From: Rhizaria sp. SCN 62-66
Taxonomy: Eukaryota
NCBI GenBank assembly: GCA_001724265.1
Contig: MEDY01000224.1
Span: forward strand, 1-64,000
DNA length: 64,000 bases
Reading direction: 5' to 3'
Of the stretch, positions 1,261 to 51,481 are shown piece by piece. Numbering within the stretch: position 1 is the first letter of the stretch; every line of letters begins with the position of its first letter. The notes under the pieces are model-generated. The model saw only the letters and a list, made by a program, of their open reading frames with translations. It was not told the origin of the DNA and did no database searches. The position numbers and the translations under genes are program-made.

Positions 1261-3080
1261 TCACTTATCAACCCCAAACTCCCCAAATACAAAGCCCTGA
1301 TCAGGAGCACTCTCCTGTTGTCCAAGCTTCACGTTATAGTTCTTGCTAGTGGTAGCGTTCGCAAACCCAGTCTCTTCATCGTACTTGACACCACTGATAC
1401 CTCCAGCAGCAGGTCCAGGAGACTTGACAATGTTTTTAGCTCCCTCGCCGCCAGCAGCGCCGCCGCCTGGCGCGCTCTCACCGGCGGCCGTCTCGTCGCC
1501 CTCGGCGTCGCCGTGGCCGTCTTCGTGCTCGCCGGCCTGGGCCGCGGAGTCGCCGTGCACGAGCTGCATGCCGCGCACGCGCAGCATGAGCCCCACGACG
1601 GCGACGGTCAGCGCGGCCGCGGCCTGCGCCCACACGGCGCCGCCGACGCGGAACACCACGCCCTCGGCGCCCTGCCGCTGCACGTATTCGCCCGCGGCGA
1701 CGCCCGCGGGGGCCGCGGCGGCCGCGGCGGCGTTAAGGGCTGCGATGACTGCCTCGGAGAGCGCCGCCGTGGCCGAGGCCGTGACGGTGGGGAAGAGCGT
1801 GAGGCCCGAGGCGGAGAGCCAGCGCGTCGCCATCGCCGTGCCCAACAGGCCCACGACTGCGCAGAGGTAGCAAAGGCGCTCGAGCCACAGCGACGCGTTC
1901 AGGTCGTACACGAGCTCGGTGAAAACCATGTACGTGGGCATCGCAGCTGTGGAGACACCGCCGTGGTGATGGGCACCGGCGCGCTGAGAGCGGGAGTTGG
2001 CGCTCTTGGTCAGACTGGCCGTGGCGTCATTAGACTCGTAGTCGTCGTTGTCCTCGTCGTTGTCATCGTCGTTCTAGACAGTCGCATTGCCGTTGCTGTG
2101 GCTGGCTGTCGTGCTACTAGAGCTAGAGCTCTTCAGAGACTTGGGAGCTTCAGGGAACACGTGGCGGCCTAACTTCTTGCCCAGTGAACTGAGACCGAGA
2201 CCGAGAATGATCCAACGACGCCACCCACCGGCAGCTTTGATCAAGTAGGCAACCCTGTTGAACGCAAACAAAGAAATAATACAATTATGGGTGAGAACAG
2301 ATTACAGCGTGAGAATATTGCAAATGACAAAATGTGCGCGACCATTTTGTCAACAAGATCGATTGTCAACAATTCTTGTACATGTACTCTGTTGCTTCGT
2401 ACCGAGTGTTGAAGCGCGAGCCGAGGAAGGCGACGAGCAGCACCGCCGCCAAGACCGTGATGACGGCAGCGACCGTGAGCGTGGTGCGGGCGCCAACCAG
2501 CCGGTCGCAATGCGCGCGGGGCGGTAGGATCTCCTTGTGGCTGAAGCGGCTGTACGACGAAATGGGCAGGCAGGTAGGATAGCACTCGCGAGGTAACTAG
2601 TGTACAGTGTAAAAGCGTTACGAATTAGAGCCAAAGTGAGACAAGAACAAGGTGATAAGCGAATACAAATAAAAGTGCGTCTGATAGTACAGATATTCGG
2701 AATCTCTCAATTGCACAAGAATGTTGGCGAGCAGTGTTACGTTTAAGTCAGTTCTCTGCGCGACGTACGAAGGACACAGTGGGCGAGATGGTGTAGCACG
2801 CCTCGGTCAGCCCCACAGTAAGCGTGTCGCCCTCGTAGAACTGGTTGCTCATCACGTGCAGCGGCGCGCGCGGCACGAACCACATCTTGGAGGCGCGGCC
2901 CGCGCTGGCGAGCACTGCCGAGGCGACGAGAAAGGCTAGACAAAGGAACAGCAGCAGCTCGGAGGGGATGTGGCGGCGGCTTGTCTTTGATCCAATCGAC
3001 AAGAGACGGGAGACAAAGAAGACGGCCGTGACGATGAGAAACGCTCCGTAGAGCAGGAACATAAAGAATGCGAACGTCAT
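1261..3080 (-). CDS. Multi-pass membrane protein with a claudin/PMP22-like Cys-containing loop; 3 exons (3080-2769, 2596-2403, 2254-1261), ~499 aa, in-frame TAG at 2074-2076
   Basis: Introns 2768-2597 (GTACGT..TAG) and 2402-2255 (GTACGA..CAG) join three segments in matching phase. Several hydrophobic helices and a W...GL..AC...C..C loop. The frame continues through NGNATV*NDDDNDED to TGA at 1261. Confidence 0.7.
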
Positions 3081-4291
3081 CCTGAAGTTTTCGTGAGGTT
3101 GGCGTGTGTGTTGCGGCAGTTGTTCTTTGCTTGTTATGGGTTACACAAGACAAGGCTCGATCGCAAGGGGCTATAGAGTGGCCAAGTGGTAGCTGTTGCG
3201 CCAACCTACTGGCTGATGTGGGTGACATGAGTATAGTGAAGGAGGAACAGGTATGGCCGTTGTAGTAGTAAGGGTGAGGATAAAGGGCAGTTGGCTTTGA
3301 CGATGTAGAATTCGAATATTTGAATCATTATTGAGGATGATTCGGGAAATAAAGCAAAATTCAGCATTATGCAACACAAAAACCAAGATTCTAGCTTGTT
3401 TCTACCATGGGTGTCAGATTAAGCTCATTAGGAGGTCCGAAGATATGAAGGATCGGATGACGAAGAAGGGAGAAGCGAGCTGGGATGCAGATATGTTCAC
3501 AGCAACACAGAGACCAAATCAAGGCGAACAAAATAAAAACCATTAACGAAATGCTGGATTGCATTCGATTTAGCTGCCGATATATGTTTTGACGCTCGGA
3601 GCATGCCAAGCCGTGTTTGCTTAAGAGCTGGTACGAAGCTGTCGCGCCATGTCGCTGAAGTCACAGTGTGCATTTGTGGCCAGATCACGTTCGACTGCGG
3701 ATGCATGTAGGGTGATAGTTTCTTAGCATAAAACAGAGAAGTATCACATAGTACTTGTTGTGACATTGCAAAATCTTGTTATTCTTTGCAGCGGATGTGC
3801 TGCTACTGCCAAAAACAACAACACGCGAGGGACTTTTGTGACCAATCAACTTACACGACGAAAACTTCACATCATAAACGTGGATATAACACGCATGACA
3901 AGTATCGACACTTATCCAGCATAGCTGCCGTAACAGTGCAGCTATTTTGTTAATATACTACTTTTCTACGGCATTGCACCCGGTCTCACTTGCATAACTA
4001 CTCGCAGACGTCTCGTGCACCCATGTTTCAAGTTGTGAACACAGAGTATTGTGATGCTTCAGAAGTAGGACCTTGCAAAACAAGAACAGCAAGACGCTAC
4101 TCCTCGTAGAGCTTTAATTAACAACATACAGGGAAACAGTTAGAAAGCAGATGTGCAGCTCATGTTGGCTCTCGTGATTACATGCTGCACATAAGCAACG
4201 CACGGAGTCGCTCAAACAATGTCATGTCTATGTATTGACTGTTTTGGCGAGATAAAGCCCAATCAATGCGAATATGTATCTTCAAAAATGA

Positions 4292-7200
4292 TTAAGGTTG
4301 GTCAAATTCGCCTTTTTTTGCGTTAAACCTGACTGTCTTTGCATTGATGTTTAGTCGTGCCATGACCTCCATCATCCCGACGTCTCCAATTGCACCATCC
4401 TCTTCGTTTTCAGCGGCGGCTGCCAGTTGTTGAATGCTCTCAATCACGTTTGGCGCAATGTCCATCAGCATAGCCTGCACAGCGGTCCGCCACTTTGTGC
4501 TTAGGATACTTAGATTGTCCGATGTACTGACATCGACGCCAGTACCAGATCGTGCGCGCGCTTTAGTGGTCGCGGCAGTCAACTCCAACGCCGCCGCAGT
4601 CGTTGTCGCTGCCAGGGCCCGCAGTGCGCTTGCGTCTACAGTCACGCCATTTCCAACTGACACACTCTTAATGGCTGCTGCAGCGGCAGCCGTTGGCATT
4701 GCGGCTCGGTGTGGCTGCTGGACGCTGTTTGTGTGAAATTGCTCGAGGTTGGCAGCAGCAGTCATTGCCATGATCTCATGCCAGTTGGGACTTGGATCTT
4801 CTCTCCAAGTGGCACTTGGACTGGATGAGTTAGTGTCACTAATTGCATGCTGCTGCTGCGGCTGTGGGCTGAGAGGCCAGTTTGCGTGATTAGGTGCAAC
4901 TCCGATGCTCCAGTTCAGAACAGTCCCTGTGTTGATGCTCGTCGGCGTGCGGCTTTCACTTGCGCCCGAGCTAGTATTGTTGCCGCTGCCTGTGTCGACA
5001 AAGCAAACACTATCGTTAAAATTTGCTGCCTCAGTTGATAGAGTGACATGGCGAAAACCGCCGTAGCTTGGACAAATACTTGTACTGCTGGTGTTTGCGC
5101 TAATATTTGTGTTGACGCCGCGAGCTGCGGTGACTTCACGTTTCAGTGACTTTGTAATTGCAGAAATGTTGCTTGGACCTGGGAATCCCCAAGTAATTGG
5201 AAGCACACAACTGACCTTCGAGGAATCAAAGTACCCATGCGTTTGGTCATAGTACCTGTGTTTACTGTCACTGCAAGAGACAATGACGGGGGCAACTAAG
5301 CTTTGTTGCTATAACACAGTTGCACTTGTGATTGCGCTTGCTCCTGCAGCTGCTCCGGCGGCAGTCGTTGACTGCGCAAGTGAAAGTGGAAGCAACGTCG
5401 CAGCAAGACAAGGACCGGTAGACGGCCATGTTGGTGTGATCACAGTGTTGCAGCTACGGCTTGCGCTAGCGTTACCAGCTCTGCTCATGGTTGAGCTGCT
5501 ATTAGATGTGCTGTTGCTACCCGGAGCTAACGATACGAGCACCCGCGACGCCAAGTCAGAACCTGGAGTAGACGAGCGAATGGACCCGCAATCTTGATAC
5601 ATCTGTGAATACTTTGTTGTGCCAACATGGAGCAAAACAGTCCTAACGGGGATACTAACACTGGTGAAGTCAAGTGGGCTCTCAACGCAGTCGCTGTTAC
5701 CCACCTCGCAGCTCTGGTCATTGACTAGAACAGCGCTCACAACTACTACTTCGTCGTCACATAGCGCGGCAGCAATCGCCTCCGAATTAGAATCACCTGT
5801 CGCCTCGTTTACGGCAACGCTTACACCGGTAGCTGCCAACGCCGCTTTTGTCCAGCTTGCAATCACCGCGCCCGACGCAGCTACAATCAGTGCCCACAGA
5901 GCTCCGACGCGCGCAACGGCGTCCGTGCAAAACTCTGCTGCAATAGCCGCTTCCATCTGCAGGCCGACGGCCCACTCACTCACATCATCGTTATCCTGGG
6001 TACTCATGCTCGGATGTGCCATCACACTGGCTTGATCTAAGTAAGGAAAGCTAGGGTCGATTGCGTCCAGGTCCAAGGCGGGCGGAAATGCAAGTACTAA
6101 ACTAACGCTACCATCAAGATTGATAGTCATGCGGATTGCGCCTGGCTCGGTGCAATTACTATCATCTGTTCGGCCAGCACTTGCACTTGTACTAGCGCTG
6201 CTGTTACGTGTATGTGTAACAAATGCTGTTGCTGCCAGCTCTGCGGCAGTGGCAGCAATCGCCGGAACAGTAAGCGGAGCGCAGCACGGCGCAAGTGCGA
6301 GCGCTGATGCTGCAAGCCGTGTGCCAATTTGCATTAATGGTGCCGGTAACGGCCACGGCAATAACACAGCAGGAGTTTGATTACTGCCACTTGCTGAGGC
6401 CGTGTGGTCGAGCAAATCCGTAATGTTGGCGGCAAGAGTCTCAAGCATGTAAGCATCCTGACTTGGGCTAAGTGTTAAAGTGTCACTATCCAGGTCGTAC
6501 TTTGGCAGCGCTCCAATCTCTGCGAGTAAACTCTCCGGTAGTAATGTTTCTGCAAACACGCTCGCAGGCACAATGACCTCGGCTGCGTGAGTTAAAATAG
6601 ATTTCTGCGCTGCCGCGGCAGCGTCACCTTCATAGTCACCGCCAGTCTCAGTTGTTGCGCTTGATGAATCCTTGGTTTTGGACTTCCCTTCCTTTGCCGC
6701 AGCCTTTGCCTGCTCCTTTTCAAGGCGCTTGCGCTCAGCTTTTTCGAGCGCTTTCGCTTCTTTCTCGGCAGCCTTTTCTGCCGCGCGCGCCTCGCGCTCA
6801 CTTGCCCTTGCTTCCTTCTCGGCCGCGCGCGCTGCTTTCTCCGCTGCACGCGCAGCCTTCTCACGCTCACGCTCTGCCGCTCGCTCGGCGGCAGCAGCCT
6901 TCTCAGCGGCCGTAAGCACCGGGGCTAATGCGGGGGCGCGGCTCGCGCTGGCAGCGGCAGAGTATCGGGCAGCTGACAATGCGCCGCCGCTGTTAAGCGC
7001 GCGCACACGCGCTGGACCAGCCTTGGCAGCTGCAGCGGCGCGGGCACGCGCACGGGCCGCGCCACCGGTAGCAAGGGCAATTGGCGCGGCACCAGAGCCT
7101 ACAGAAGGTAGTGGCTTGCGGCCAAAAAGGAGCTTGCGAGGGCCCTTTGTCGGTCCCATGTCGTTGTCGTAGTCGCTGCTGGTATTACTGCTGCTTTCGC

Positions 7201-9013
7201 CATCTTTGTCAGCGTCGGATGAAGATGATGTTGTCGACAAGAACGGGTTCTTGCCGTCTGCATCTCCGGCGTCGCCTGTATATGTATCATATCCATCGTC
7301 TGCAGTCACGCCTTTGGGTAGCGCGTGTGCGGAAACGCTGGGCCGCTCCCACGGGTCTCGTACACTAAGACTGCTGCTCGCGGCACTGACATGTACGGGG
7401 GTGACTTCGAGGCCAAGGTTAGACGCGAGGCTGTCAATAGTGAGTGTAGATAGGCCGGTTTTGAGACTAATGCTTCCAGAAAACTCCGCAGAAGAAGCAG
7501 ACGCGCTGGTGCAAGAGCTACTACTATTGGCGTCAGTTCTGTTGTTAGCAGCTTGTTTGCGTAAGGCTGAAGCCGTCACAAAGAGCTGCGCCGCTGACTT
7601 GGGCTAAGCGAACACGGCACGGCGGGCGCCCTCCTCCATTTCCTTAGCTTTCCTGATAGCTGCGCGGCTGAGCGCACTGCCACCAGCACTGCCAGCTTGG
7701 GGTAAGTCTGCCTTAGAGCGGTCGCCGGTCTGCTTATCCGTCGTGTCGGCGTCACTAACGCTCTTGAGACTCGAGCCAGACACAAATGCATCACGAGCAT
7801 TCGCGCTAGTGCTGCTGCTTGTGCTCCTGTTGCAAGTCTGTAACTAACCTGCAATTGCCTGCGATCCCGCAAGAGACTGTGGGTTTTGCTCCCACACCCA
7901 CACTTCGTCCCAGTGTCCCCACTTCACGTCATACTAATCTTCCTCCTCCTCCTCTTCCGACAGCGCTCTCGCATTTGTTGCCGTTTTTGCCGCGGACTTA
8001 GAAAGCGGTGCGCGCGGCTGCAAGAGAGAGCGTGGCACTTCAAGTAGTGTGCCGCGCGGCTTGCCGGCCGCGGTTGGGCTGGGGCGAGATGTGTCATTGG
8101 TGTTTGTGCTGGCGCCGTTCTGAATGCTCTGCGCGCTGCGTGGCAGTGGCTGTGACTGCATCTTGGTAGTCTTGACACCGCTGCTAGCATCAATGGTGGG
8201 CTTGCGGCGACCGCTGCTGGGTAGGCTAGAGCTCGCGCTCACATCCACGGAAAACGTTGGCACAATTGGTGTTGCTGCGGGGCCTAAAGCAGAAGTGACT
8301 GCGTCAGGAGCATGGACAACAGCCGACTTAGTGTTCACCTTGACTTTGATCTTGGCTGGAGCTGGTGTTGTGGCCGCGGTTAGAGCTGCAGTGATTTCTT
8401 GTGCTGCTGTTGCAGTCAGTGTTGCGACGGGACTGCTTTGGGTGGTGGTGCCAGTTGTCTCAGCTGCACTCGTACTAGCTTTAGAACGCGGCTTCACTTT
8501 GACTGAGACCTTCTTCTGGGAAGCTAACGAGGGCACAGTCGCAGTAATTGCGTTGATGTCATTGGCTGCGGTAACGTTAATAGAAACCGCCTCTGTTGAA
8601 AGGGCGCCCGTTGAGATATCAGTAGCTGAAGGCTTGGTCTCCGCTTTGCGCTTCACAACGACCTTCTTGACTGTAGGTTTGGTCCCAGTGACGTCAGGTG
8701 TCTCGGATGCTAGCGGCTCAACGGCAGTTGCTGTAGCCTTGAGTTCAATCACTGTCTTGTTAGCTGTGAGGTCCGGTGGAACTGTGCTAGGCGCAGTGTC
8801 GGTAGTAGGGATTGTGCTCGTCGCAGAGGTAGGAACAGGCGCCGCCTTCTTAATCTTCACCACAACCTTCTTAGCCGACGGACCAGCCGGCTTAGTGGGA
8901 GCTGTTTGCGTAGCCGTTGTAGCGTTGGGACGTCGAGCATTGTTGCTGGTGCTTGGAGTGTCTGCTGCAGAGAGCATTTGGTTGAAGGTGTTTTCGACGT
9001 CGTCATCGTCCAT
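4292..9013 (-). CDS. Hypothetical protein, ~1573 aa, single reading frame with four in-frame TAG codons (7934, 7844, 7604, 5309)
   Basis: Track ORFs 7934..9160, 5309..7579 and 4292..5206 are all in one frame. The gaps between them, read codon by codon, contain only TAG and no TAA/TGA. Likely ATG at 9013 (MDDDDVENTF); terminal TAA at 4292. T/P/A-rich N-terminus and an E/K/A/R charged helix. Confidence 0.75.
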
Positions 9014-9114
9014 CTCTCTGTTGTTGAGACGAAACAAACGTATACATGCGGTACGAGGAAGAATAACAAAACAACCGGGTTGAATTTGAGTTAAACATCC
9101 TGGTTTGACAATTG

Positions 9115-9156
9115 AACAACTTGAAGCGGTATTAAAACAACTTGAAGCGGTATTAA
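9115..9156. repeat. Perfect 21-bp tandem duplication (AACAACTTGAAGCGGTATTAA x2)
   Basis: Identical copies at 9115-9135 and 9136-9156. Confidence 0.95.
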
Positions 9157-11182
9157 TCATTGCGGTTTCTTTGATGAAGATATTGGTGGAGGCGATCTCA
9201 AATGACCGTGTTTTTCAGGAACCCATGCATGCATTTGCACTCTTCTTGGACAAGCTATAATGGTGTACATGCATAATCTTTTAAGTCAATGTATCGCGTA
9301 CAAGTTTGGTCGTGTCAATACTATTCCAGCACGGTTTTGGTGCATGGCCTTGCAACTCGCACATCTTCGCTGATAAGCTCCGCAATCTCAAACCTCGGTT
9401 TCGACTCAGGTCCCATTGCCAGCCTGGTCCGCCCGCCCATTACTGCCATCTCTTCCGATTCGAGCTTCACCATCCTAGCCTTCAAGTTCCCTCACGACGA
9501 TAAAGACAATATTTTTCCCTCTTTGGCAGCCCTTCCGACGTTCGTTCATGCAGCTGGCGGAGACTTTTCGGCAGCCTCTCGCCCTGACCGACAGCTCTTC
9601 GATGGCAGAAGACATGAAACATACGCCTTTCACGTTGCCTAATCTCGACATATCAGTATCTAAGAGCGCGGCACTTTTCAACGCGAGTCTCATCAACTCC
9701 AGCTGTAGCTGCAGGTTCGCCTGCACCTGCGACCACAGCAACATAAGCCAGCATCGTTTGTCCAGACGCTACTGCGCCTTCGCGCAGTGCAGCAGCGACA
9801 GCGCACTGACCGCGGCAGAGTCTTGGTGGCCCTGGGCACCCTCAGCGCAGCAACACCGAGGCCACTTACCAGTGTGGCAGCAGCGAGCTAGTGAGGACCC
9901 TTGCTCGCGCTTTCACCTCGCGTACACACTGTATAGACAATATCATTGTTCTTATTCAGGTCTTAACTTTTAAACCATGTGTATTATACATGTAGAAGCA
10001 AGTTATTTGTTTACAGTAAGTGACGGAATCGATCAGATTGTCTCGTACCACCGCCACTTTTGATCTCGCTAACACAGTCAATCGCACAGACATGTCCCTC
10101 GCAAACACTGCAAACTCACGAGCTAAGATACCTTGACTTGCTTGGTTGCATATTCTGTTTGATTAATTGGCGATGTCAACGCAAAAAAATAATATGGATA
10201 GACGTAGCAGAGACACACAAAACAAGGTAATTGTTGTTGCAGTAATGGTGTAGTAGTCGTTGTTAAAGCTGTTCACCGTCTCATGACAACACGGCGACCA
10301 TTGTAAAATATGCAGAAAATTGATTCAAAAACACAAGCACATACGCATATAGTAAGGCGAAACAATACGTCCTTTACAATATAACTACACGGCACAACAC
10401 ACCGTACACGTGTAAGAGTGTGCGTGATGTGGTATGTGTGAACATATTGTTCAGACTGTAGTGTGACACGGAATATGAGCAGCTGGCTATGAGTGCAAAA
10501 ACGAACAAGAAACAAAAACAAATTGAATTACTTGACTTAAAGTGGAATGAAACGACGAGCAGGAAAGAAAAACAGCAGGTCTGTTAAAACGTGTGCGTTT
10601 GCGTTGAGCACGGTAGCTAATTAGACTAGGCCTCGCCAGCAGCAAGACAAGGCTTCGAGAGCTAAGCTGAACACAGACAGAGAGAAAGACATGGAAGACA
10701 CAGACGCGGTTAACGCACACGATAGTACACGTGTTACAGCTCACCTCCACGGCCTTATCATCACTTGTCCACTTCAACGTATGGCTAAGAAAGCTTATGA
10801 GTGTGCAAGATGCCTTCTAAGACAACGCCGAGTGGAAGCACATAATTTGTGTGTAAATATACGTGCGAGTGCAAGTGTGATTGCAAGTAGTGTGTTTAAG
10901 GTTGCATGTAACAAAAGACAGAACAAAGGGAGGGGGGGAAAAATACAGTGCTGTTAAAGAGGAGCAGCACATGGCGCCAACAATACCACACAGGACCGCA
11001 TGTTGGTGCGTGTGTGGAGGTGTCGTTGCAGCGGTGCGCCGTACGAAGTGGGAGCAAAGATATGATGGGACGATGCAACAGCAACTGCGGCTCATATGAG
11101 TGAATCACTGCCGACCGAAGCAGGCAGTTCCGAGACTAGTCGTTGTTAAAATGCTGTGGTGGTGGTGTTGGCCGCTGCGTGC

Positions 11183-11844
11183 TTACGCAGCCTCCTCAGC
11201 CTTGGGGGCCTCCGCAGTCTCAGCCTCGGCCTTGGGCTCCTCAGCCTTAGGCTCCTCAGCCTTAGCCTCGGGCTCAGCCTCAGACTTGGCCTCAGGCTCC
11301 TCAGCCTTAGGCTCCTCAGCCTTAGGCTCCTCAGCCTTAGGCTCCTCAGCCTTAGGCTCCTCAGCCTTAGGCTCCTCAGCCTTNCCTCAGCCTTGGGCTC
11401 CTCAGCCTTGGGCTCCTCAGCCTTGGGCTCCTCAGCCTTGGGCTCCTCAGCCTTGGGCTCCTCAGCCTTGGGCTCCTCAGCCTTGGGCTCCTCGGCAGCA
11501 GCAGCGGCCTCAGCCTTGGGCTCCTCAGCCTTGGGCTCCTCGGCAGCAGCGGCCTCAGCCTTGGGCTCCTCAGCAGCAGCGACAGGGGCAGCCTCAGCAG
11601 CCTTCTCCTCTGCCTTCGCCTCAGGCTCGGCCTTGGCCTCAGCGGCCGCAGCGGGCGCGGCATCGGCCTCGGCCTTCTTGTTGTCGGCGTCTTCGATGGT
11701 GATGCAGACGGGGGACGTCTCGCCGGCCGCGGGCGACGCGGGCGCGTCGGTCGCGACGGCGGCAGGGGCGGCCTTAGCGGTCGGCGCAGAGGCAGGCTTG
11801 GCCTGGGCGTCGGCGGGCGTAGTTTGAGAATGAGTGCAACCCAT
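11183..11844 (-). CDS. Dual-acylated (MGCxxS) hydrophilic Ala/Glu/Pro/Lys-rich repeat protein; contains an assembly gap
   Basis: ATG at 11844 gives MGCTHSQ (Gly2 myristoylation plus Cys3 palmitoylation pattern). EEPKA repeats lie on both sides of the N at 11384. TAA at 11183 is in the repeat frame. Confidence 0.8.
11295..11493 (-). repeat. 15-nt coding minisatellite (EEPKA), at least ~13 units, interrupted by N at 11384
   Basis: On the + strand the unit is GGCTCCTCAGCCTTA left of the N and GGCTCCTCAGCCTTG right of it. Confidence 0.95.
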
Positions 11845-12584
11845 GAGGTGAAAGCTAGAGGCGAAGAAACATGGATGGTGATGTAGGAGAGCGTGAGAGA
11901 AAAGGGGAAGCAAGGTGGCACGCGACGACCAGCAAGAAAAACATTGCAGCGGAAATCAGTCAGTGCGGAGTCCTTCTTAGTGCATTTCAAATAGCACACA
12001 AATGACTAAATTATTGGAAGTATCTTACAGTTCAAATATACCCCCAAATCACCACGCTTTGTAGCAACATGGCTCATACAAAGCTGCGGGGCGTTTCATT
12101 TTCGAGAAGGGGTTGAGCGCTCACGGTCACTTGCCTCCCCCAGTCAAATCACTTCTAAGAGCCGATAGTGCCAACATGAGTAATGACTTAAAATGTATTT
12201 CTATCATTATGTGTAATCGTTTTCTTAATGTATCATATTATTGCTATGAAGCGATTGACGGATGTTCTGACTACTTTGCTATCACATGAGTGTCGCCGAC
12301 GATGACTTGTGGTCTCCTTTCTTCCACATTGCCCGCCATCTACGCATTACATAGTAACTCATATGCTTGGCAACGAACAATTATACGCAATCACATGTTT
12401 GAGTGTATCTACTTCAACAGCCTTTGTTTTGCTGGCGCCCGGAAATCCCTCACAATTAGGCCTTTGCTCGCCCTGCCACACCATCCTCTCCGTCTGTCTG
12501 CGCTCTTTTAACACCTCGTATCCTCCGACAACACACTTGCTCTGGCAACATCACCCGGTCCCGGTACAGAGCTCGCGTTGTTTT

Positions 12585-13955
12585 ATGGGACAGACGTGCT
12601 CTGGTGACAATCGTCATCGTCTCCCGGCCTCTGGTTACGGTTTTCGCTACCGCCATGGTCCGTCACACTCATGCACAACACTAATGCAAACTTCTTTTTT
12701 TATGGTAGTCCACGCATATGTTCACTGTTGCTTGCAAATGCCACGTATAATCTCACCAAGAGAATTTTAACACGAACCATGTGTTTTCGTCTGGGATAAC
12801 AACATTTCTCGCTCACTAAAACTTTTGCATGACCGCTCGCCACTAAACCCCACTCATATCTCCTGCCACAACAACGCTCGCACACACAGACCCGGTGCAC
12901 GCGCGCCGCTTCCAGCTCTGCTTTGCGACGCCCCCGCAGTACCAGACGGGTCTTATTGTGCCCCTCTTCGGCGAGTACGAGGACGTCGCCGCGCTCTGGG
13001 ACGCCGCCGCCGCGGCCGCCGCGCTCGGCATCTCAGTGTTGTGTCTCATGCGGCCCTCAATCGACGACACGCCGCGACCCGCTGAGTCGCTGTCCCCGGG
13101 CTACACGACCGCGCTGGCCAAGCTCGTCGCCGCGGGCGCGCGCTGTCTCGGCTATGTGGAGACGGGTGAGTGCTCTAAGTCCGCCTGGCTCATCGACAAC
13201 GAGATCCGGGCCTTTGCAACCTGGGGCAGCGCCGGCTCCGCCACGGGGCTGTGCGGGATGTTCTTCGACCACACGGCGCAGGACGCGTCGGCCTACTCGG
13301 TCGCGTACTGCCGCCGCGCCGCGCAGACGACCCGCGAGGAGGTCGGACCCCTGGTCATCCTCAACCCCATGTGCGTACCGTTATCGCTCGAGTACAAGAA
13401 GTGGGCTAACGTCGTCGTCACCTTCGAGGACGTCTACAGCGCGTTCCGCCCGCGCGCCGGCGACGTACCCGCCAACCGCGTGTACACACGCCGCAAGGAC
13501 GGCAGCTCGGACGACCCCGCGCACCCGCCCGATGAGACCAAGGGCGTGGCGCACTACAGTGAGGGCGCGACGGCGACGGACAAGGTCGCCTCCGACGTGC
13601 AGATGGCGGCGCGCGCGATGAAGCAGTACGTCGCCGTGATCGACGATGACGACGACGTCTCTGGCAGCGCGAGCGAATGGGAGCACGACGACTCGCTGGC
13701 GCCCGAGGCCGCGGCGCCGTATGTCGCCAACTTGCACCGCGCCGAGCATGAAGTGGACCCCGAGGTGGCGGCGACGGTGATGGCCGCCGTGGAGGCCGTG
13801 CGCGACGACGACGACCGGTCCATGCCGGCGCCCGCGGAGGGACACGACGAGGTTGCGCAGGGCGCCGCTGCGGACGCGCTAGTGCCGGTGCCGCAGCTGG
13901 CGTGCATTGTGCTCGCGATGGCGCAGGGTGTTACCAACACCACAGTCTCGACGAC

Positions 13956-13987
<32 letters not shown>

Positions 13988-14577
13988 CTGAGGAGGAAGA
14001 GGAAGAAGACGGCGCCCTCGCGAGCGCCGGCGCCGCGCTGCGCAAGGCCGAATCCGTGACGACCAAGACCGACTCCGCCGTGTCGGCGTTCGAGGCGCGC
14101 GCGGGCGCCCGCATCCAGCGCCGCACGCGCCGCGCGCTGCGGTGGGCCAAACAGCGCGGCTTTGGCTGGGTCTTTGCCGTCCCGGGCAACTTCAGCGCCG
14201 GGACGACGGTCGGCACAGTGGCTGCGACCGGAGACCACCCGTACGAGTTCTCTCAAGACTGCTGGGACGCGATGATTGCAGAGATCACCGGCAGTCCCAG
14301 CAACAGCTCCGCCGGTGCCGCGAAGAGTGGGAACATGAGAGCTGTTGGCGTTGGCGCGGGCGCGGGTGCCAAGGGCAAGTCTGTGACGACTACGACGACA
14401 ACGACCACGAACAGTACTTCGAGCTCTAGCTCTAGCTCTAGTATCAGCGCTGGTGCTGCGGGCGCAAACGCGAACGCAAGCGAGGTTGTGATGTCGCCGC
14501 CTGTGTTTGTGGCCAAGGACGAGACTGATGGCGCGGCTGCGCCTGAGGAGAAGACCGAAACGGCAGCCGCGGCGTGA
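12585..14577 (+). CDS. Spherulin-4 / GH135 (Sph3-like) family protein with low-complexity insertions; exons 12585-12657 and 12890-14577, ~586 aa
   Basis: Motifs LIVPLF, LGYVETG, GMFFD, VILNP, VVVTFE and C-terminal AKQRGFGWVF...HPY.....W resemble Spherulin4. Intron 12658-12889 (GTCCGT..CAG, CACTAA branch-like) joins an MGQTCS first exon in phase. Confidence 0.75.
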
Positions 14578-15611: not shown

Positions 15612-18600
15612 TTACATCCACTGCGCGTTCAAAACGGCGCCGACTTCATCAAAGTCGTCGTTTTCGCCGTCTTCTTGCGAGTCGCCGCTGTTGTTCAACA
15701 TGCTCTGCTCGAACATAGGCGTCTGCGCTCCGAGCTGCACTTCGTACGTCGTGCGAGACAAAGTCTCAGTCGCTGCAGTCGCATTAACAGCTGCGTCGCC
15801 AATCTGATAGTGGGGAGAATTTTCAGATAACTCTGAACGTGCAGAGCCGTTATTGCTCGCGTTGATATTGTTGTTGTTGACTGAGAGGGACCTGAAGTAT
15901 TCCTCGCGCTCGGCAGCGAACTGCTGATGCATGCTTTGCTGACGGTTATCGCCGTCTTCAAGTTCGTCGTCATCCTCGTCGTGATGCTCACTTCCTTCGT
16001 TGTCTTCGTCTTCATATAATCCGTCGCCTTCATCATTGTTGTTCACATCACCGTCTTCGTCTTCGTCTTCGTCGTCATAATCTTCATCCACGACTTCCAG
16101 TCCAGCATCAGCGAACGTGGCGGCAGCGACTCGTGCCGCAGCCGCCTCGCGGCGCCGCTCTTGCATGAAAAACTCCGCGATCGCAGCAACAGCCGCCGCA
16201 TCCTCCTCGTCGATATCAACCGGCTCAGCAGCCTCCACCTCGTCCGCCACAGCCGCAGTCGCTGACTCAGACGCAGTCGCGACAGCAGCAACGCCAGAGT
16301 CTCTCGTGGGCGCTGGACTATGAGATACCGTGGCAGCTGCGGTCTCGACCGCAGTCTGTAAGTTCGCGACTTGCGCCTGCAGTGACTGCACTAGGCTCTC
16401 ATAAGCGCCCAGGCGGGCCTCGACAATCGCGCCAGCCAGCTCGCGGTCACTCTCGCCGGAAGCACTACTTGCGCTCTGACTGGCATTGCGAGAGCCCGCC
16501 CCGGGAAACGCGCTCTGCAGCGCCGCAGTAACAGCCGCAGCGGTCGCCGCGTCGGCGTCCGCGCTCGCCTGCGCCGCCTCGGAGCGCACGCGTGCCGAGT
16601 TGACCGCCGACGGCGGCGGCGGAGCCTCGCCCAACGCCTGCTGATACATGCTGTGCGCGACGGCGAGCAGCCCCGACGGCAGCGGCACCAACGCGCCGGC
16701 CTCGAGCCTCTCCGCGTCGGCCGCGAGCGCCGCCAGCCGCGCGCGCGCCGCGCAGACCGTGTCCATGGCCTTGCTGGCGAGCGCGCGCACGCGGGGGTCC
16801 GCCCACTGCACGCCCCACTGCGTGCGCGCCCACCCCGCGGCCGGCGCGCGGGCCGGCGGCGCGGCGTCGACCGTGGTGGCATCGGCGAGCCCCACGCCAG
16901 CGAGCGAGCGGTGCGCGACGTGGCTGCGCATGCGCGTGTCGGCGGCCGCGCCCGTCAGCTGCTGCACGGCCGCGGTCGCGGCGGCGGGGGAATCGGCGAC
17001 GACGGCAGCGATGGCGGCGTCGGGACCAGCGGCGTTGGTGGTGGTTGTGGTCGTCGTTGTCGTTGAGCCGTCATCACGCTTCTGCTGTTGCTGTGGCTCC
17101 GAGGAAGGGTAGCCAGCCGCGCGCTCTGTCGCCGCAGTAGCAGCGGACTCTGCAGCGGCTGCAGCGGCGCGATCACCCTCAGCAAGTGCGTCCAGCGCGG
17201 CGACAAAGCGTGCCACGGCCTCGACTTGCCACAGGCGCTGCAGCGGCGGCAAAGGCACGCTGCCCGTGGGCCGTGACCCGCCGTGGAGACTGAGATCCAA
17301 CTGCATCGAGTTAGAGTGCGCGCCAATGTGAGCGTTCGAGTTACTGGAAGATTGCGGTGTCGAAACGGTGGAGAGCAGAGGCAGAAGCTCCGCAGCAAGA
17401 GCGTCATGGCGCGCAGTCGATGCGTGGTCACCAGCGGCCGCAGCGGCTGCGCGTTCCTTGGCCAAATCGGCCATCAACGAGAGGCCATACAGCACAACAT
17501 CATTCTGATCGCCGCTATCCGCGCCGTCAGGAGTCGCGCTGGCGGTATGAGAGCGCGTGTTGCTGCTGTAAGAGTTAGACCCGCGGAAGAGCGAGCGCAT
17601 GTCGTTCATGATACGCCTCGCGCGCGCGGCACGGCCGGCGGCGTCGCGCGCCGACTCCGGCGGCTCGTCAGCGCCAAGCGTGGCCACGGTCACACCGCCG
17701 ACAGTCACCGCACCCATCGTCGCCGCGGTGGCGTTGGACAACGGCGCCGAGGCCGCACCGGGCCCTTGCACGCGCACGTGGTGGCGCAGTGCACGCAGAC
17801 GGCCGCGCAACACGTCGACAGCGCTGCACTGCGCGTGGAGCAGAGAGATAAAGAAGTTGATGCCGGCGGCAGACGCAGCGGCGGCGACTGCGGCGGCAAT
17901 GCCCGCAACGCGCGCGTCCGCAGCGGCCTCGGCGGCCCAGCCGTCGCCGGAGGAGCCCGAGTGGGTGATGACAGTGAGCGCGTGCGGCAGCGGCACCGGC
18001 GGCGCACGCGTGCGCGGCGGGGGCACGAGTCCCGTCCTCGCGCCGTTGACGTAGCGGATGTGGACTGTATCAGTGCCGGCACCTTGGTCAAGGTCGCCGA
18101 CGAACGTCCACGTCAAAGGGCCGTGCTCGGCCTCGTACGCGGCGAGCTTGCGCTGCACGAGCTGCATCTGCGACCGCGTCGCTGTGAGACGCAGAGAGGC
18201 CTCGGTGAGCTTGGCGCTGGACGCAGCGCCCGCCTCGCCTGCGGCCCGAGCCTCGGCGCGCGCGGCTTCGAGCGCGGTCTCCAGCGCCGCGATCGACTGC
18301 TTATGCTCAGCGAGGACCTCGGTCTGGCGCGCGACTGTCTTCTTGTACTGCGCAAGAGAAACGCGAAGCTTAGTCGCGGCCTCCTCCTGTGCAGCCGCGG
18401 CCTCGCAGCGCTGGGCCTGAGCTTCAACACGCGCCTTCATGCCGCGCAGGGCGGCGCCTTTGCGCGCGAGCTCCTCGTGTGCAGCTGCGAGATCGCGCTG
18501 TGCGTTCGCCAAAGCGTCCCCGCCTTCGCCATTGTTCGCACTCGCAGAAGATGCGTTGGGCTTGCCATCGGCATTCGCGGGGGCGTCGACGGTGGCAGCG

Positions 18601-40197: not shown

Positions 40198-42915
40198 ATG
40201 CTGTCACGCGCGCCTGCCGCGAGCGCTGCCTTCCAGCGCGTCCTGCAGCGCGTTGGCGCCACCACCTCGGCCGCATGCGCCCCCGCGCCCGCGCTTTCCC
40301 AGCCCGCGCTCGGCCCATATCTGCCCGTCGCAGTCTCAGCGCTGGCCTCAGTCGCATCTGCCTCCGCCTCCGCCTCGTCGCCAACCGTGGCGGTCTCAAG
40401 CAGCAGCCGCGATGCGGCCGCTGTCTGCGCCGCGGCGGCCCCGCGCCCCGTGCTGCCGCCGCCGTACGCGCCCGCGGCGGCCACCGCCGCCGAGGCCTGC
40501 ACTTCGTCGCGCTCGCCGGCCACTCCGCTCACAGGCGCAGGCGCAGGCGCATGCAACTTCGCCGTCGCTGCCTCGCCGGGCTCGCCGCGAGTAACGCACT
40601 CGCGCCGCGCATTTGCGACCGGTGCCGCGCTCGGAGCGAATGCCTCAGCGCGAGCGCGAGCAGGGGCGGTGACGATGACGGGGTTAATCGGTGCGTCATC
40701 GTCGTATGCCGCTTCGTTCTCGTCGTCTGCTGTCACATCCAACAGCAACAATGCGAACAATAGCCGCCAAATTGGCGACATCCCTACTGCCAAGTTTGAC
40801 TCCATTGCGCCGCCCGTTGCGCCCGGACAGACGCGCGCGCGCACGCGGACGCAGACGCAGGCACCTAGCAACCACAACAAAGCAAGCGCTAAGAACCCCA
40901 GCAGGAACAGTGGACAGCCGCCATCGACAGCGCCTGGTGCAAGTCCTCCCGCGACCGTTTCCGCAAGCGCCAGTCATAGTAGCACTAACGCCAACAAGCA
41001 GTCGAGGCACGCGAATATCACTGCTACTCCCAGTCAGTCCGCGACCGTGACACACGGTCACTCCCTGTCACCCTCCGCCCCTCCGATGCCGACGCCGACG
41101 CCGGCGCCGGTGTCTGTGCCGATGGGCCACAACTACGCGCGCGCGCGGCTCGGCGATCCTTACTACGGCTTTGGCAACGCGCTCTTCGAGGACCACGCCG
41201 CTGCCGCCGCCATCGCTGCCCCGCTCGACGCCGCGGTCAACGGCTACGGCTACAGCGGCAGCGGCAGTGACCGTGACAGTCGCCCACTTGGTGCCAGCGC
41301 GAGCGCAAGCGAGGCTGACAGTGCGAGCGTTGCTGCGCTGGAGGCGGGCGACATGGACACGCTGCGCTCGCTCGCCGCAATGCACGCCGTGCGCGCAGAC
41401 CTGCTCGCGATCCGACGCGCCACGCTGGCCCCGCGGACCAACGCGGCGGGCGGCACGGCGGCCGGGCAACACGACGACGACAACCTCGACTACGACGACG
41501 ACGAGTACGACTACGCGCTGAGGAGGGCTGACGCAGGCGTGTCCTCTGTCGCCGCCACGGCCGCCGCCGCCGCCGCCGCGCTGGCCGGCATGTCCGCCGC
41601 GTCCGAGACGCTGGCGCTGGGGTCGCGGCGTGTGGCGTGGCTCGACGACTCGATGCCGCCCGCCGAGACCGTGGCCGAGCTCACGGTCACCCTCGCGGTC
41701 GGCGACGCGGACACGGTCGCCGGCCACGACCGCAGCCTTGACGATGGTCACGGGCTCGCTCACGGTCACTCGAGCGCTGGCGCGGTCTCTGGACACAGTT
41801 TCGTGGATGACGTCTCCGCCGCCGCGATTGCGCGCAGTCGCAGCGTCGTCTTGCACAGCGGTCTGCTGGGGACCCACGGCCGCGACCACGCGAGTCAGGC
41901 GGTGTCCTCGCTGTTCATCGCCGTGAGCGCGCCCAAAGACGTGGCGGCGCTCGTGGCCTCGATCGTCGACCCAGAAGGACCCTTGCCGTTCAACAAAAAC
42001 AACGCCAACAGCAATAATGATGACGCAACCGCCGCTGCTAGCTGCGGCAGCAACGACGCTCATGACGCTGACGTGATCCCGCTCCCTAACGCGAAGCCTG
42101 GTAATAACAGCGGCAAGAGCCATGCCAACACCAAAGCCGCGCCGGAGCCCGCGCTCTCGGCCGCCGCGGCGGCTGCGGCGCTGCAGCTCCGCGACGCAGC
42201 CGCGTCGCTCGGGGGCTTCCCGCTGTCCTCGTTTCTGGCGACCGACGACGGGCACCAGCGGCCCGCGGCGCTGCTCTACCTCCGCGTGCGCGCCGCCCAC
42301 GCCGCGGGCCGCGCGCCGGCGGCCGCGTTGCTGCTGGCAGGCCGCCGCCTCGCCGCCGTGGCCGCCGAGGCGCTCGCGCCGCTGCCGGCGGGGTATTTGA
42401 CTGCGCTGACAGACGCGCTGCGGCGGGACGGCGCCGCGACCGACGCCGCGGTGTGCGAGCTGCTCATCGCGGGCTGGGCGCGCGCGGGCCACCCGGCCGT
42501 GGCGGCCGCAGTGGCCGAGGCCGCGCTGGGGCTCGAGTCGCCCGCCGCGCGCGCCGGCCGGGCGCTGCTGGGCGGCACCGCGGCGAACCCCGTCGCGCCG
42601 CTCGGGCTCGGCGCGCTCAGCAAGCTCGTCCAGGCCTGTGCGCGCGCGCGTCTGGGCGGCGTCGCCGTGCGTGCGTGCGCGCTGTACGCCTCGCGCGCGG
42701 GCCAAAGCCCGCTGGGCGACCCCGCGCTGCTGTCGTCGCTGGTGACCGCGCTCCTCGCCGCGGGCCGCTTCGGCGCCGCGCTGGCCGTGATGCGCGCGGC
42801 CGAGCTGCCGGGGCGCGCGTCAGCGCTGCCCGCAGCCGCTGCAGAGAGCTGGCTCGTCGCCGTCAGCGACACCCTCGGCCGGGGGCACGCGCTGATGCTG
42901 CCGGTGCCTCACGCT

Positions 42916-42971
<56 letters not shown>

Positions 42972-45900
42972 AACGAACACGAATTCAAACACAGGTAACT
43001 CCAATCGTGCGACGGACACGAGTGCGTCAAGGAGTACTGCTGCTGCTGTAGGTAATAATCGAGAGGCGCAGCGGCCGGACTACAACTGGGACCGCGTCAC
43101 GGTGCCCGCGACCGCGGCCGCCGTCCCCGCCTCCTCCCTCCGCGGGCCCCTGCTCTGCGCGCTCTGGAGCACCACGCACGTGCCCGCGGCCGAGCGCGCG
43201 CCGCTGAGCGCGCTGCTGCGGCTGCTGCTGGCGCTGCTGGGGGCGCGCGCGGCGCCGCTGCCCGCGCGCGCCGGCAACGCGCTGGTGCAGGCTGCCGCGC
43301 GCGCGGGCGACCCGGCGCTGGCGACGGCCGTGCTGCTGGCGCAGACGCGCGCGCTGCGGGCCGCGCTCGCCGCCGCGCTGCAGCGAGGCGCGCTGGCGAC
43401 GGGCGCGCTCGCGACTGTGGAGCATCCCGCGCTGGCGCCGCTGTTCGCTGAGCTCGAGGACGCGCTTGCGGCCGCGCAAAGCGTCACCAGCGAGCCCGCG
43501 GCGGCCACGACGGGCGCCGTGCTTGGAGTCGCCGGCGGCGGGGACGGCGTGGACCTGCTGGGTGACCGTGAACTGAGCGACCGTGAGCATCAGTTCGACA
43601 TCGGCGGCAGCGGTGACGGTGAGACAAACTGGTCGACAACAATGGCACAAAGTCAGACTGCGGCGGCTCTCGTTGCGGCGCTGCCCGGCGTCGAGCCGCT
43701 TGACAGCGTCGGCCTCGCGGCGGCGCTGACGACGCTGCTGCGCGCTGCTCCGCTGCTGACGCGCGAGACCGCCCACCTGCGTACACACGCGCACGCACTC
43801 CACCGGAGCGCGAGCGCGGGCGCGGGCTTTATGAATCGCAGCAATGGTCAGGAGAATGCAAGCGAAGGCGCTGTGACTGAGAGCGAGGTGGACGGCGAAA
43901 CGGTGTCTGAGACTGGAGTCAATGACAACAACAGCAACAACAACTACGGCGCGGCGAGGATTGTTCTCCCTGACTCTCTGCTTTTGAGCAGCGATGGCTC
44001 CATCTCGAACTCTGTTGCCGCGACTTGCAGCACTGCCAGTGTCAACAGCGTCGAAGGCGTCCTGACACGCTCCTGTGTCACTCAGTCTGGATCTGAGTCA
44101 AATCCTGTGTCTCTCTCAGTCTCCGCGTCCAACGCCCCGGTGCCCGCGCCCGTGCCCGCCGAAGTCGTCGCGGTCGCGCGCGCCACGGACTGCGCGCTGT
44201 CGCTCGTGCACGCGACCGCGCTCGACGCCGCCACCGCGCTGCGCCTGACGCTGCTGCTGCGGGTTGCTGACGGTCACGGCATCACCGCCGCGACCGCGGC
44301 CGAGGCCACCTCGCACCTCGCCCTGCCCGCGGCCGCCGCGGCCGCCGTGGCCGCCGCGCCGCCGCTGCAGCCGATGCTGGCATGCACGCGCGCTCTGTCG
44401 GGCGCCGCGCTGACCCCGGCGATGCTGCAGGCGCTCGCGGCCGCGCTGCAGTCGTTTCCGCGCTCGTCGCAGGCCGTTGGGCTGGCCGCCGCGGGCGTGC
44501 TAGCGCGCACAGTCGCGGCCGCCGCAGACTGCGCCGCCGGCATCCCGCCCTCCAACAACACCACGAGTCACACTCCAAACGGGCTGGCGGTGAGCGTGGG
44601 CGGCGAGGAGGCCGCGAACGCGCGGATCATGGGTGCCGGGGCGAGCGCCGAGGCCGACTGGGCCGCGGTGATCGCCGAGCGCTGTCTCCACTTGGCGGAG
44701 CGCGACGAGGTGAGTGCCGCTGGGAACGGTCGAAATCGCTCGTTTAATGACGACGATGTGGAGGATACGGACGTAATGCTGCGCGCTTTGGCTGTGGACT
44801 TTGCCCCCGAACTCACTGCCCACGGCCACATCACGGCGAAGCACTCCGCGAGCCGCAGTATCCATGAGATCATTCTCGACGGCGAGAGCAACAACAACAA
44901 CAACAACAACAAGGACGACGACGACGGTCACAGTGGCGAAACTGACGACGACATGACTGATGTTGATCGCGCCGACGCGAGCGCGAGCCTTAACACTGTC
45001 TCCGAGTTCGAGGCTTCCCTCGTCTCTCGCTACAACAGGTATCGTGCCTCGCTGCCGCCCCCGTCCGCTCTCGCGCTGCCCGCCGCCGTGCCCGCCAAGC
45101 TCCCCGCCGCCGCAGCCGCCGCCGCTGCGCTGGCCCAGGTCTCGGCCACCGCCGCCGTCCAGGCCGGCGTGCGCGCGCGCGTGTCTGCCCTCGTCTCCGC
45201 TCTGCTGACCTCGGTGCGCGCGACGCACCGCGCCCGCCACGCGCTGCCCGCTCTCGACTTGCGCGCCTGCGCCACGGCGGTGCTGTCCGCGCTGGGCGCA
45301 GCGCTGACGTACGAGCTTCCCGGCGTCAACGGGCTCGCCGCGGCCGACGCGAGGCTGAACAAGCACATGAACCTGTGGCCCGCGCCGCCCGGCGTCGCTG
45401 CGCGCTCGCTGGCTGAGGCCGCGGCGGCGCAGTCGGCGCTCGCATCGCTCGCCCCCGAGCATCCTTTGCTTGCTGCGCTATAGCACGCGACCAAGCGCGC
45501 TCCTCTCAACGCCAATGCTGCTGCTGACCCCAGGACTTACCCCAGTGTCAGTGGCAGTGGCGGCGCTCGCAGTGGCGGCGTTCGCAGTGACGACGGTGTG
45601 TCTGTGAGCCCGCGCGGCCTGCAGCTGGCGACGCTCGCGCTGGCCCACGCGCAGCACGCGCGGCGGCTAGACTTCCCGGCCCGCGCGCGCGCCGCGCTGG
45701 CGATCGCGGCCGTGCGCAGTGCCGTCCCGCGGTCCTCGCACGACACGGACCTGGCCATCGCAACGCTGCGCGCGCTCGTCGGACTGGGCCTCCATAACGC
45801 CGCGACGGCGGTCGCCTGCGAGGCGCTGGCGCTGCTGCACCGCGAGAGCGCGCTCAGCGCCGCGGAGCTCGCCGCGCGCGGCGGCAGCGCGGGCATCGCG

Positions 45901-47490
45901 GCGGGCGCGGCTGTGCGCGTGACCGAGGCCTACTGCGCGATGCTGCGCGTGCGCTACGAAGGCACGCACACGCTGCGATTCCTTGATAAAGTGCGCGCTA
46001 TCTTCGCCAATCCCGTTGATATTCCTAACAACAGCGGAAACATCATCAACAGTGCGCTCTCGAAGTTCTATCTCCCCAACAATCGCAACAGCGTCAACCC
46101 GAATGACTTACTTTCTCTGCTGAGTTCAACTGCACCCGCGGCGACTGTCCTGCAGCAGCGCGGCGTCGGCCTCGCGGCCGGCGGCGGCGTCGCCGCGGGC
46201 GCTTGGGCCGGGCTGTCGAGCGTCATGGATCCGCTCTCCGGCCGCTCGCTTGCCGCCGTGGCCTCGCAGTGCGCGCTGCGCGCCCTCTCGACCGCGCCGG
46301 GCCTCTCCCGCGAGGCGCTGCTCTCGCACGCGCTGTCCGCGCTGCTGCAGTCCGCGCGCGCGCGCGCCGCAGAAAGCGGCGATGTCGACAGCGACAGCGC
46401 CGCCGCAGAGACCGTCCCGACCATCGACGCGGTCAACGAGGCCATCACGGCGCTGGCGCGCGCGGGCGCGGAGCAGCAAGCCATGGAGCTGTTTCTCTGG
46501 GCGGCCTCGCCGTCCACCTTCGTTGGGCTCGTCAACCGCGCCCTCCGCCCCCACAACAACAACGCCGTCGCGAGCACGACCGCTGATGCAAACTCTACTC
46601 TGAGTGCGAGTGCGCATGTGCGTGCAAGCAGTGCTAGCGCGTTCCGGCCGTCTGCGTTCATCGTTGCGCTCTTAGCCAAGCTCGGCCGCGCTCAGCAGCT
46701 GCGCGTGCCCAAGAAGTTAGGCCGCGGCGCGCTCTCGAGCCTCGCGCCGCCGCTGGCCGCTGGCGCGCTGCCGCCAACGCGCGCGCCCTCAGTCACCGCT
46801 CTGACTTATCTCGCGGTGATGAAGGCGGCGCAGCACAGCGCGGGCGGCGCAGGGAATGTTTTCATCCCCACAACGCACTCCGCTGCCACTGCCACTGCCA
46901 CTGCGGCAGCGACAGCGACTGACGCGAGTGTTGGTCTTATCACTAGCTCGCCTGGCGCCGCGGCTACGCTCGGCCGCGAGTGGGCGCGCCCACTGGCCCG
47001 CGAGCTGCTGCAGTGCTTTTCCGGCGTCTCTCCCGCGGCCGCGCTGGGCTGCCGCGTCTGGGGCGTCACCGTCGTCTCGGAGCGCTCCGCGGGCCGCGCG
47101 CACCGCGGCGGCGCCGCGATCCTGCTGCCCGCGCTGCCGCTGCCGCCGCCGCCGCCGGTGCTGCGCGCTTTCGTCGCGGCACACGCGCTCGCGCCCGCCG
47201 ACGCCGAGCGTCCCGCCGGCCCGCTGCGCGCGGGCGCGATGGCCACGCTTGCGCGGCTCAGTCCGGCGGCCGCGCAGCAGCGCTGGGTGGCGGCCGCGGC
47301 GGGTCAGCGCGTCGGGCACGTCGACGCGCTGTTTGTGCTGCAAATGGCCGCAGAGGCCGAGGAGGAGGCGCGCAAGGGCTGGGCCGCCGCTGATGCGTTG
47401 GGCGACAATGTGAAGAGCAACAGCAACAAAGGCCACAATGACAAAAGCAACAACAGCGGCAACGTCAAGGTCAAGGTCAAGGAGACTTAA
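40198..47490 (+). CDS. Large organelle-targeted divergent PPR-like protein, ~2430 aa, in-frame TAG at 45481-45483
   Basis: Transit-peptide-like MLSRAPAASAAFQRVLQR. PPR-like helix pairs (CELLIAGWARAG, LSKLVQACARA, LSSLVTALLAAGRFGAA, GNALVQAAARAGD) occur before the TAG and AVNEAITALARAGAEQQAMELF occurs after it. ORFs 40198..45483 and 45598..47490 are in one frame with an open linker. Terminal TAA. Confidence 0.7.
42916..42969 (+). repeat. (AAC)18 coding microsatellite, poly-Asn
   Basis: 18 consecutive AAC codons within the PPR-like CDS. Confidence 0.95.

Positions 47491-51446: not shown

Positions 51447-51481
<35 letters not shown>

Follow-up and report, generated by a model that had tools for sequence, protein, structure and literature searches.

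To our knowledge, nuclear code changes confined to UAG are known from few lineages, namely one rhizarian, one fornicate and some ciliates, and the cases described so far are all mature, with UAG common in conserved genes. Two of them are UAG-only nuclear reassignments, to Leu in Rhizaria sp. exLh and to Gln in Iotanema spirale; 384 in-frame UAG codons were counted in 71 exLh genes, and many UAGs of the described cases stand at hyperconserved leucines or glutamines (PMC5304391). Among ciliates, two further reports describe a UAG reassignment with widespread sense use in phyllopharyngeans (PMC11687900) and a code in which UAA and UAG differ in meaning (PMC10553269). Ambiguous codes, in which one codon is both stop and sense, are described in work on Condylostoma, on karyorelicts and, for UAA, on Blastocrithidia (PMC4967479, 10.1101/2022.04.12.488043, PMC12153298). 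Here we describe a minus-strand gene at 4292-9013 of a eukaryotic contig from a wastewater/bioreactor metagenome (positions 1 to 64,000 of MEDY01000224.1; this whole 64-kb stretch is called the window). The gene contains four in-frame TAG codons and hints at a changed code, and a genome-wide change is plausible. Its parts are listed below; X3, X4, X5 and X14 denote sequencing runs in which the stretch was found again.

4292..9013, minus strand: single coding frame of 1,573 codons, from the ATG at 9013 to the TAA at 4294-4292
7934..7936, minus strand: TAG1, codon 360, after EEEEEED; TAG in X3 and X5, GAG (Glu) in X4 and X14
7844..7846, minus strand: TAG2, codon 390, inside GGTTAGTTA; colinear contigs of X4, X5 and X14 span it
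7604..7606, minus strand: TAG3, codon 470, inside GCTTAGCCC; bridged by X4 record 22
5309..5311, minus strand: TAG4, codon 1235, inside TTATAGCAA; spanned without change in X3 (record 10) and X4 (record 18)
7580..7933, minus strand: linker 1, 118 codons in the same frame, holding TAG1 to TAG3, coding-like by codon-model score
5207..5308, minus strand: linker 2, 34 codons after TAG4, open in frame, not coding-like by codon-model score
4295..4633, minus strand: conserved C-terminal 113 residues, ending ...GEFDQP, which match the 118-aa protein P0126, ending ...GEFDKP

An earlier reading of this DNA (the original prediction) had proposed one 1,573-codon gene with four TAGs, hidden as three open reading frames (ORFs), and our analysis confirmed the frame and its four TAGs. 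The read-through translation of 4292-9013 is interrupted at residues 360, 390, 470 and 1235 (TAGs at 7936, 7846, 7606 and 5311) and closes with the final TAA; no other TAA and no TGA lie within the frame. Under translation table 11 the locus is listed as three minus-strand ORFs in one shared frame: 7934..9160, which starts at ATG, and 5309..7579 and 4292..5206, which start only at GTG, as had been claimed. Neither downstream ORF has an ATG near its start. The in-frame ATGs of both lie far inside, and the nearest one in the third ORF is ~150 codons in, with none of its own before. The other five frames over 4292-9160 carry 52, 111, 58, 21 and 110 stops, versus four TAGs and the terminal TAA in the frame of the gene. 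From position-specific base composition, 10.1 TAG, 9.0 TAA and 7.3 TGA codons would be expected in the frame; the observed counts were 4, 0 and 0. Likewise, when the DNA was simulated 500 times with a first-order Markov model, no TAA- and TGA-free run exceeded 467 codons, whereas the gene has at least 1,573. A perfect 21-nt direct repeat in two copies (AACAACTTGAAGCGGTATTAA) lies at 9115-9156, ~100 nt upstream of the ATG at 9013 and within a non-coding-looking extension of ORF 7934-9160.

A codon model was fitted to the three ORF segments, with in-gene control windows and flanking DNA as references. Linker 1 scored 34.0, compared with 45.6 ± 12.0 (minimum 18.2) for the in-gene controls and −20.7 ± 12.9 (maximum 9.7) for the flanks. 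The interval between TAG2 and TAG3, a candidate intron, scored 25.1 versus 31.2 ± 9.2 in the gene and is hence coding-like. Because linker 1 is coding-like, the downstream ORFs lack starting ATGs, a conserved C-terminus lies behind the TAGs (see below) and no spliced form was seen, we concluded that 4292-9013 behaves as one coding unit rather than three genes, a conclusion that is well supported and that agrees with the original prediction.

The target stretch was partly present in 13 runs of 7 studies, and 4 runs contained half or more of its words. The TAGs are no assembly slip of a single data set: TAG4 was recovered in X3 and X4, TAG3 in X4, TAG2 in X4, X5 and X14, and TAG1 in X3 and X5. 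We compared contigs of a second strain, represented by runs X4 and X14, colinearly with the window. Roughly 28 letter differences were found in ~4.4 kb of the frame, and contig record 17 (3037-4689, mostly 3' flank) differed by 24 letters and 2 gaps. The 11 in-frame differences listed comprised 4 synonymous changes, 6 non-synonymous changes and the change of TAG1 to GAG (place 7936, A>C on the plus strand); none among those listed falls on TAG2 or TAG3, and 18 further differences exist in the compared stretch. Indels were distributed differently. Four events separated X4 from the window in ~3.9 kb of flanking DNA (3464, 3738, 9579 and 10912), versus none in ~4.4 kb of frame, where ~4.5 would be expected (P ~0.01); downstream of TAG2 only, the expectation was ~3.3 (P ~0.04). 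The reading frame was thus kept in strains carrying at least three of the TAGs.

The gene product is an orphan, rich in Ala, Ser and Thr and mostly of low complexity, with K-rich N-terminal repeats, a charged helical stretch of AEKA type and the conserved C-terminal region. An exhaustive HMMER search found one relative besides the window's own ORF products, namely P0126, which is encoded on an 11.8-kb JGI contig. It matched the last 113 residues with a phmmer E of 1e-18 and 50% identity (BLASTP, 45% over 93 aa), and both proteins end at the same C-terminal residue, GEFD[QK]P. The alignment starts at the first residue of P0126, whose M faces a V. Because homology begins at its first residue, the P0126 ORF appears to be a fragment of some longer coding region, which an in-frame stop would seem to interrupt in the relative too. 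The match to P0126 implies that the part of the gene beyond the last TAG is under selection now or was until very recently. The homologue and HMMER searches returned no orthologue covering any TAG position, so no residue is aligned to a TAG.

Other searches with this protein gave little. A scan of JGI metagenomes yielded a single same-organism match, a 1.8-kb contig covering residues 1-186 at 100% identity. No Pfam family matched the read-through protein, a word-indexed homologue search for it (lengths 865-2,753 aa) had no match, and tblastn against the window revealed no paralogue. Nothing from the organism or its relatives was matched in the viral contigs and GTDB genome contigs scanned, and protein cluster look-ups gave no length variant of the first ORF (7934..9160). 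A search of the ESM Atlas with P0125, the plain product of one of the ORFs, reached a best score of 0.79, below the useful level, and AlphaFold2 applied to the C-terminal 130 aa with one relative gave a mean pLDDT of 46.7 and no confident fold.

We then considered how TAG is used elsewhere in the window. A codon-model picker selected 21 coding-like ORFs starting with ATG, which ended in TGA (10), TAA (8) or TAG (3). The three that ended in TAG were two segments of the target gene and 40198-45483, and each of these continues in frame as coding sequence. Outside those three, 0 of 18 coding-like ORFs ended in TAG; given that TAG makes up 23% of the stop trinucleotides of the window, this has P ~0.009. 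That is, only UAA and UGA were found to end genes within the window. The third TAG-ended ORF belongs to a second gene:

40198..47490, plus strand: second gene with an internal TAG (45481-45483), a 1,761-codon ORF followed by a 630-codon ORF in the same frame

The 456 bases from this TAG to the next ATG (45940) have 76% GC, versus 41-53% in five intergenic spacers, and in-frame coding scores return from ~45570. The word-indexed homologue search found no match to the joined 40198-47487 protein. An A[RK]AG motif was tried as a link between the two halves and rejected, as it is common in all Ala-rich ORFs. At 50692-52086, two long antisense ORFs overlap; the plus-strand ORF ends in TAG and has higher GC content at first than at third codon positions (GC1 > GC3), the pattern of an antisense frame, and the minus-strand ORF (GC3 0.80, TAA end) is the likelier gene.

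All five internal TAGs, the four of the target gene and the one at 45481, occur in a W-TAG-Y context (T-TAG-T, T-TAG-T, T-TAG-C, A-TAG-C and A-TAG-C). Compared with in-frame NAG controls, and judged post hoc on five cases, this had P ~0.011 for the pyrimidine at +4 and P ~0.004 for A/T at −1. The context may be one of weak termination or may be due to chance. TAG4 and TAG 45481 have TATAGCA in common. We discarded a test of the +4 pyrimidine against all TAG trinucleotides: C or T followed the out-of-frame TAGs in 37 of 42 cases, because AGC and AGT codons put C or T after TAG, so only the in-frame NAG control is valid. Readthrough motifs of the tobamovirus type consist of UAG followed by CAR-YYA. 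The sequences downstream of the five TAGs were TATGAC, TTACAG, CCCAAG, CAACAA and CACGCG; none of the five fits CARYYA, which speaks against programmed UAG readthrough of this type.

On balance, we lean towards the reading that UAG is translated in this organism, is not a stop there and is still very rare, which would imply a recent or inefficient reassignment. Under this reading, one gene would occupy 4292-9013 and encode a largely low-complexity, fast-evolving protein whose C-terminal ~110 residues are conserved, and the gene's four UAGs would be translated instead of ending the chain. The agent might be a tRNA that reads UAG; alternatively, near-cognate decoding might be efficient and the release factor might recognise UAG poorly. 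Decoding of UAG would be a property of the organism rather than of one gene, in keeping with UAA and UGA as the only ends of genes in the window. We infer all three of these points, that ribosomes pass UAG, that the change is genome-wide and that such an agent decodes it. As for the amino acid, the TAG/GAG polymorphism at TAG1 is a weak hint at glutamate.

A number of our observations weigh against translation of UAG. The gene has a GC3 of 0.52, versus 0.8-0.9 in neighbouring genes, and this is the level of non-coding DNA in the window. The listed strain differences other than that at TAG1, 6 non-synonymous and 4 synonymous, indicate weak protein-level constraint. TAG was found in 0 of 13,080 codons of ten GC-rich ORFs, versus ~108 expected from position-specific composition (TTG occurs 86 times), and these TAG-free ORFs include every conserved gene, among them the Vac14, desaturase, NUDIX-like, Spherulin4-like and leucine-rich repeat (LRR) genes. 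In-frame UAG was therefore confined, within the 64-kb window, to the four in the target and the one at 45481, rather than occurring in many genes including conserved ones. ARAGORN predicted no tRNA genes in the window, and thus no tRNA(CUA) there, and the window does not contain the eRF1 gene. Linker 2 scored −7.5, like the flanks (−7.2 ± 8.6) and below the gene (12.3 ± 4.9), and sliding windows slightly preferred frame +1 at 5299-5210; it may be of odd composition or a short intron. The 38 codons directly after TAG 45481 had a low score of 3.8, a value within the bottom 3.7% of the in-gene controls. Broken genes also occur on this contig, since there is an apparent 1-nt frameshift near 32640. 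The original prediction stood in part on two counts. Its coding linkers held for linker 1 and not for linker 2. Its code change is favoured by the terminators of the 18 other ORFs and by the running-on of the other TAG-ended ORF, and is opposed by the absence of TAG from the GC-rich codons.

Three explanations under the standard code could account for some of these points. It is hardly credible that the locus holds three or four separate genes in the same frame, each ending at TAG. Standard-code callers do keep the products apart, and public protein collections store them as P0128 (408 aa), P0124 (756 aa) and P0125 (304 aa), but the downstream ORFs have no eukaryotic starts, and the supposed spacer at 7580-7933 is coding-like and free of TAA and TGA, whereas real spacers in the window measure 430-1,560 nt with 41-53% GC. 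Also quite improbable are spliceosomal introns, open in frame, that would contain some or all of the TAGs. TAG2 lies within GTTAGT and TAG3 within TTAG, but the natural pair formed by them, GTTAGT (7848) to TTAG (7604), spans 245 nt, not a multiple of 3, and breaks the frame as had been predicted; its interval, moreover, is coding-like. Frame-keeping GT..AG pairs that remove TAGs do exist (70 around TAG4, 39 around 45481 and 28 spanning TAG1-3; 137 in total), but a GTRAGT donor occurred in 0 of 137, with no splice-site model specific to the organism. In the second strain the place of TAG1 is taken by an ordinary GAG. Splice joints were absent from contigs of all 4 runs compared, although contigs cannot show that splicing is absent. 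A contig of the poly(A) RNA library X14 (7737-8083) and a contig of X5 (7596-8227) were colinear across TAG1 and TAG2; this is weak evidence, as the contigs may derive from carried-over DNA or from unspliced precursor. Among the RNA-library contigs listed, none bridges TAG3 or TAG4. None of the 13 runs is RNA on record. X5, described as 'RNA-Seq cDNA' and probably DNA, covers 4607-9121 and 9724-11500 without 2500-4606 and 9122-9723, and we did not take this patchy coverage as a sign of transcription. The original prediction had spoken of introns of the window, and for these we found no evidence: ORFs of 5,662, 1,761, 1,622 and 807 codons are unbroken, so introns are at best rare. The most plausible cases would be a short intron around TAG4, for example one ending at CTCTTGCAG (5271), and one around TAG 45481. 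A pyrimidine tract and CAG follow TAG4 and end at 5271, in agreement with the low score of linker 2, and CTTTGCTTGCTGCGCTATAG precedes TAG 45481, after which the scores are low as well; but X5 record 25 is colinear over 4923-5267, across the other acceptor candidates at 5179-5265. We concluded that the intron explanation fails for TAG1-3 and may remain for TAG4 and 45481.

A decaying gene, that is, a unitary pseudogene or dispensable gene in which TAG1-4 are independent nonsense mutations and the N-terminal 359 residues or nothing is made, seems unlikely to us. The non-coding level of GC3, the orphan status with no Pfam family or homologue, the ratio of strain differences, the absence of TAG from conserved genes of the window and the apparent frameshift in another gene on the contig would all suit decay, as would the gain or reversion of TAG1 within the species, which resembles a nonsense polymorphism. 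But decay should have brought frameshifts and mixed stops, and the 1,573 codons contain no frameshift, no TAA and no TGA; for random nonsense hits, all four stops being TAG would have P ~0.04-0.05 (~0.045). Had decay lasted long enough to remove codon bias, the frame would have been lost, yet all four indels relative to the second strain lie in the flanks, and the C-terminus behind all stops is still conserved with a relative. A second coincidence would be needed at 45481, and the lack of TAG terminators would be left unexplained. Translation of UAG is favoured over a pseudogene because the latter needs several independent coincidences: stops that are all TAG, a frame free of frameshifts and, between strains, of indels, conservation of the C-terminus, another gene with the same feature, and the lack of TAG terminators.

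If UAG is translated, standard-code annotation cuts the genes of this organism to pieces. UAG occurs only in two genes that are orphans or weakly codon-biased, as would be expected if its reassignment were recent or inefficient. A more specific proposal is possible but doubtful: a GC-rich, nearly intron-free wastewater eukaryote would have lost UAG as a terminator and would decode it, possibly as glutamate, with the change too recent or too inefficient for UAG to have spread beyond weakly constrained, weakly codon-biased genes, an early stage of nuclear reassignment outside ciliates. Were this true, a lineage with UAG nearly unused would test codon capture against an ambiguous intermediate on real data. 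Wastewater and bioreactor data from several studies contain the organism, so material for tests of tRNA, eRF1, transcripts and peptides should be obtainable.

The remaining features of the window concern its genomic setting. GC content is mostly 60-73%, with 50-59% in the first 16 kb versus 60-74% at 16000-47000; the low value of the first 16 kb is due to long spacers and the low-GC3 target, and the other genes there keep a GC3 of 0.73-0.85. The genes for a NUDIX-like and an LRR protein have GC3 of 0.8-0.9, as do three further genes:

35543-37966: Vac14, GC3 0.8-0.9
48585-50039: fatty-acid desaturase, GC3 0.8-0.9
12895-14577: Spherulin4-like gene, GC3 0.8-0.9

In a Vac14 tree, the window protein fell among metagenome and NCBI sequences, and the plants, oomycetes and Colponema stood apart; the sequence GILI01 in this tree is Colponema vietnamica (PMC9765531). 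A search of the window against Rfam gave no matches. The minus-strand 804-codon ORF at 32534-34948 and the 5,662-codon ORF at 15612-32600 overlap by ~220 nt in different frames. Coiled-coil-like sequence crosses frames there near a GGGG run at ~32640 (within 32530-32760), and one extra base would give an ORF of ~6,480 codons; the frame change may be genuine, may be an indel of the assembly or may have another cause. At 11146-11955 (minus strand) lies a small gene, MGCTHSQ..., with EEPKAE repeats, which a 15-nt tandem array of ~23 copies (11224-11592) encodes. The frame shifts inside this array beside the window's single N (11384), contigs of all runs compared have loose ends there, and the array is probably mis-assembled.

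Our literature search found no account of such an organism beyond the known ciliate, rhizarian, fornicate, trypanosomatid and Amoebophrya cases. The codes of exLh and Iotanema resemble this locus in that all in-frame stops are UAG and only UAA and UGA serve as terminators (56 + 15 and 104 + 15 there, 8 + 10 in our window), and UAG is rarer in the ribosomal protein genes of exLh, much as it is rarer here in strongly codon-biased genes. They differ in that UAG is common in their conserved genes, which weighs against translation here, while our five UAGs sit in two orphan genes, with 0 in 13,080 other codons; none of the five lines up with a conserved residue, and the window has no tRNA(CUA) gene. 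In the ciliate code in which UAA and UAG differ, UAG is reportedly Glu. The ciliate cases share with our proposed reading a change of UAG alone with another stop fixed, and discovery in uncultured organisms from metagenomes; they differ in their AT-rich macronuclei, widespread sense UAG and identified suppressor tRNAs, against 50-73% GC and long intronless genes here, and the Vac14 of our window groups with none of the named sequences tested. The ambiguous codes are alike in that a stop codon is both tolerated in frame and disfavoured, and by analogy the W-TAG-Y context of the five TAGs could reflect remaining competition with termination; in those codes, however, the same codon also ends genes, whereas no ORF of the window was found to end in TAG. 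A unitary pseudogene, finally, would share the premature stops, the orphan status, the codon usage at non-coding level and the weak protein constraint, and is set apart from this gene by the latter's freedom from frameshifts, single type of stop, indel-free frame between strains and conserved C-terminus.

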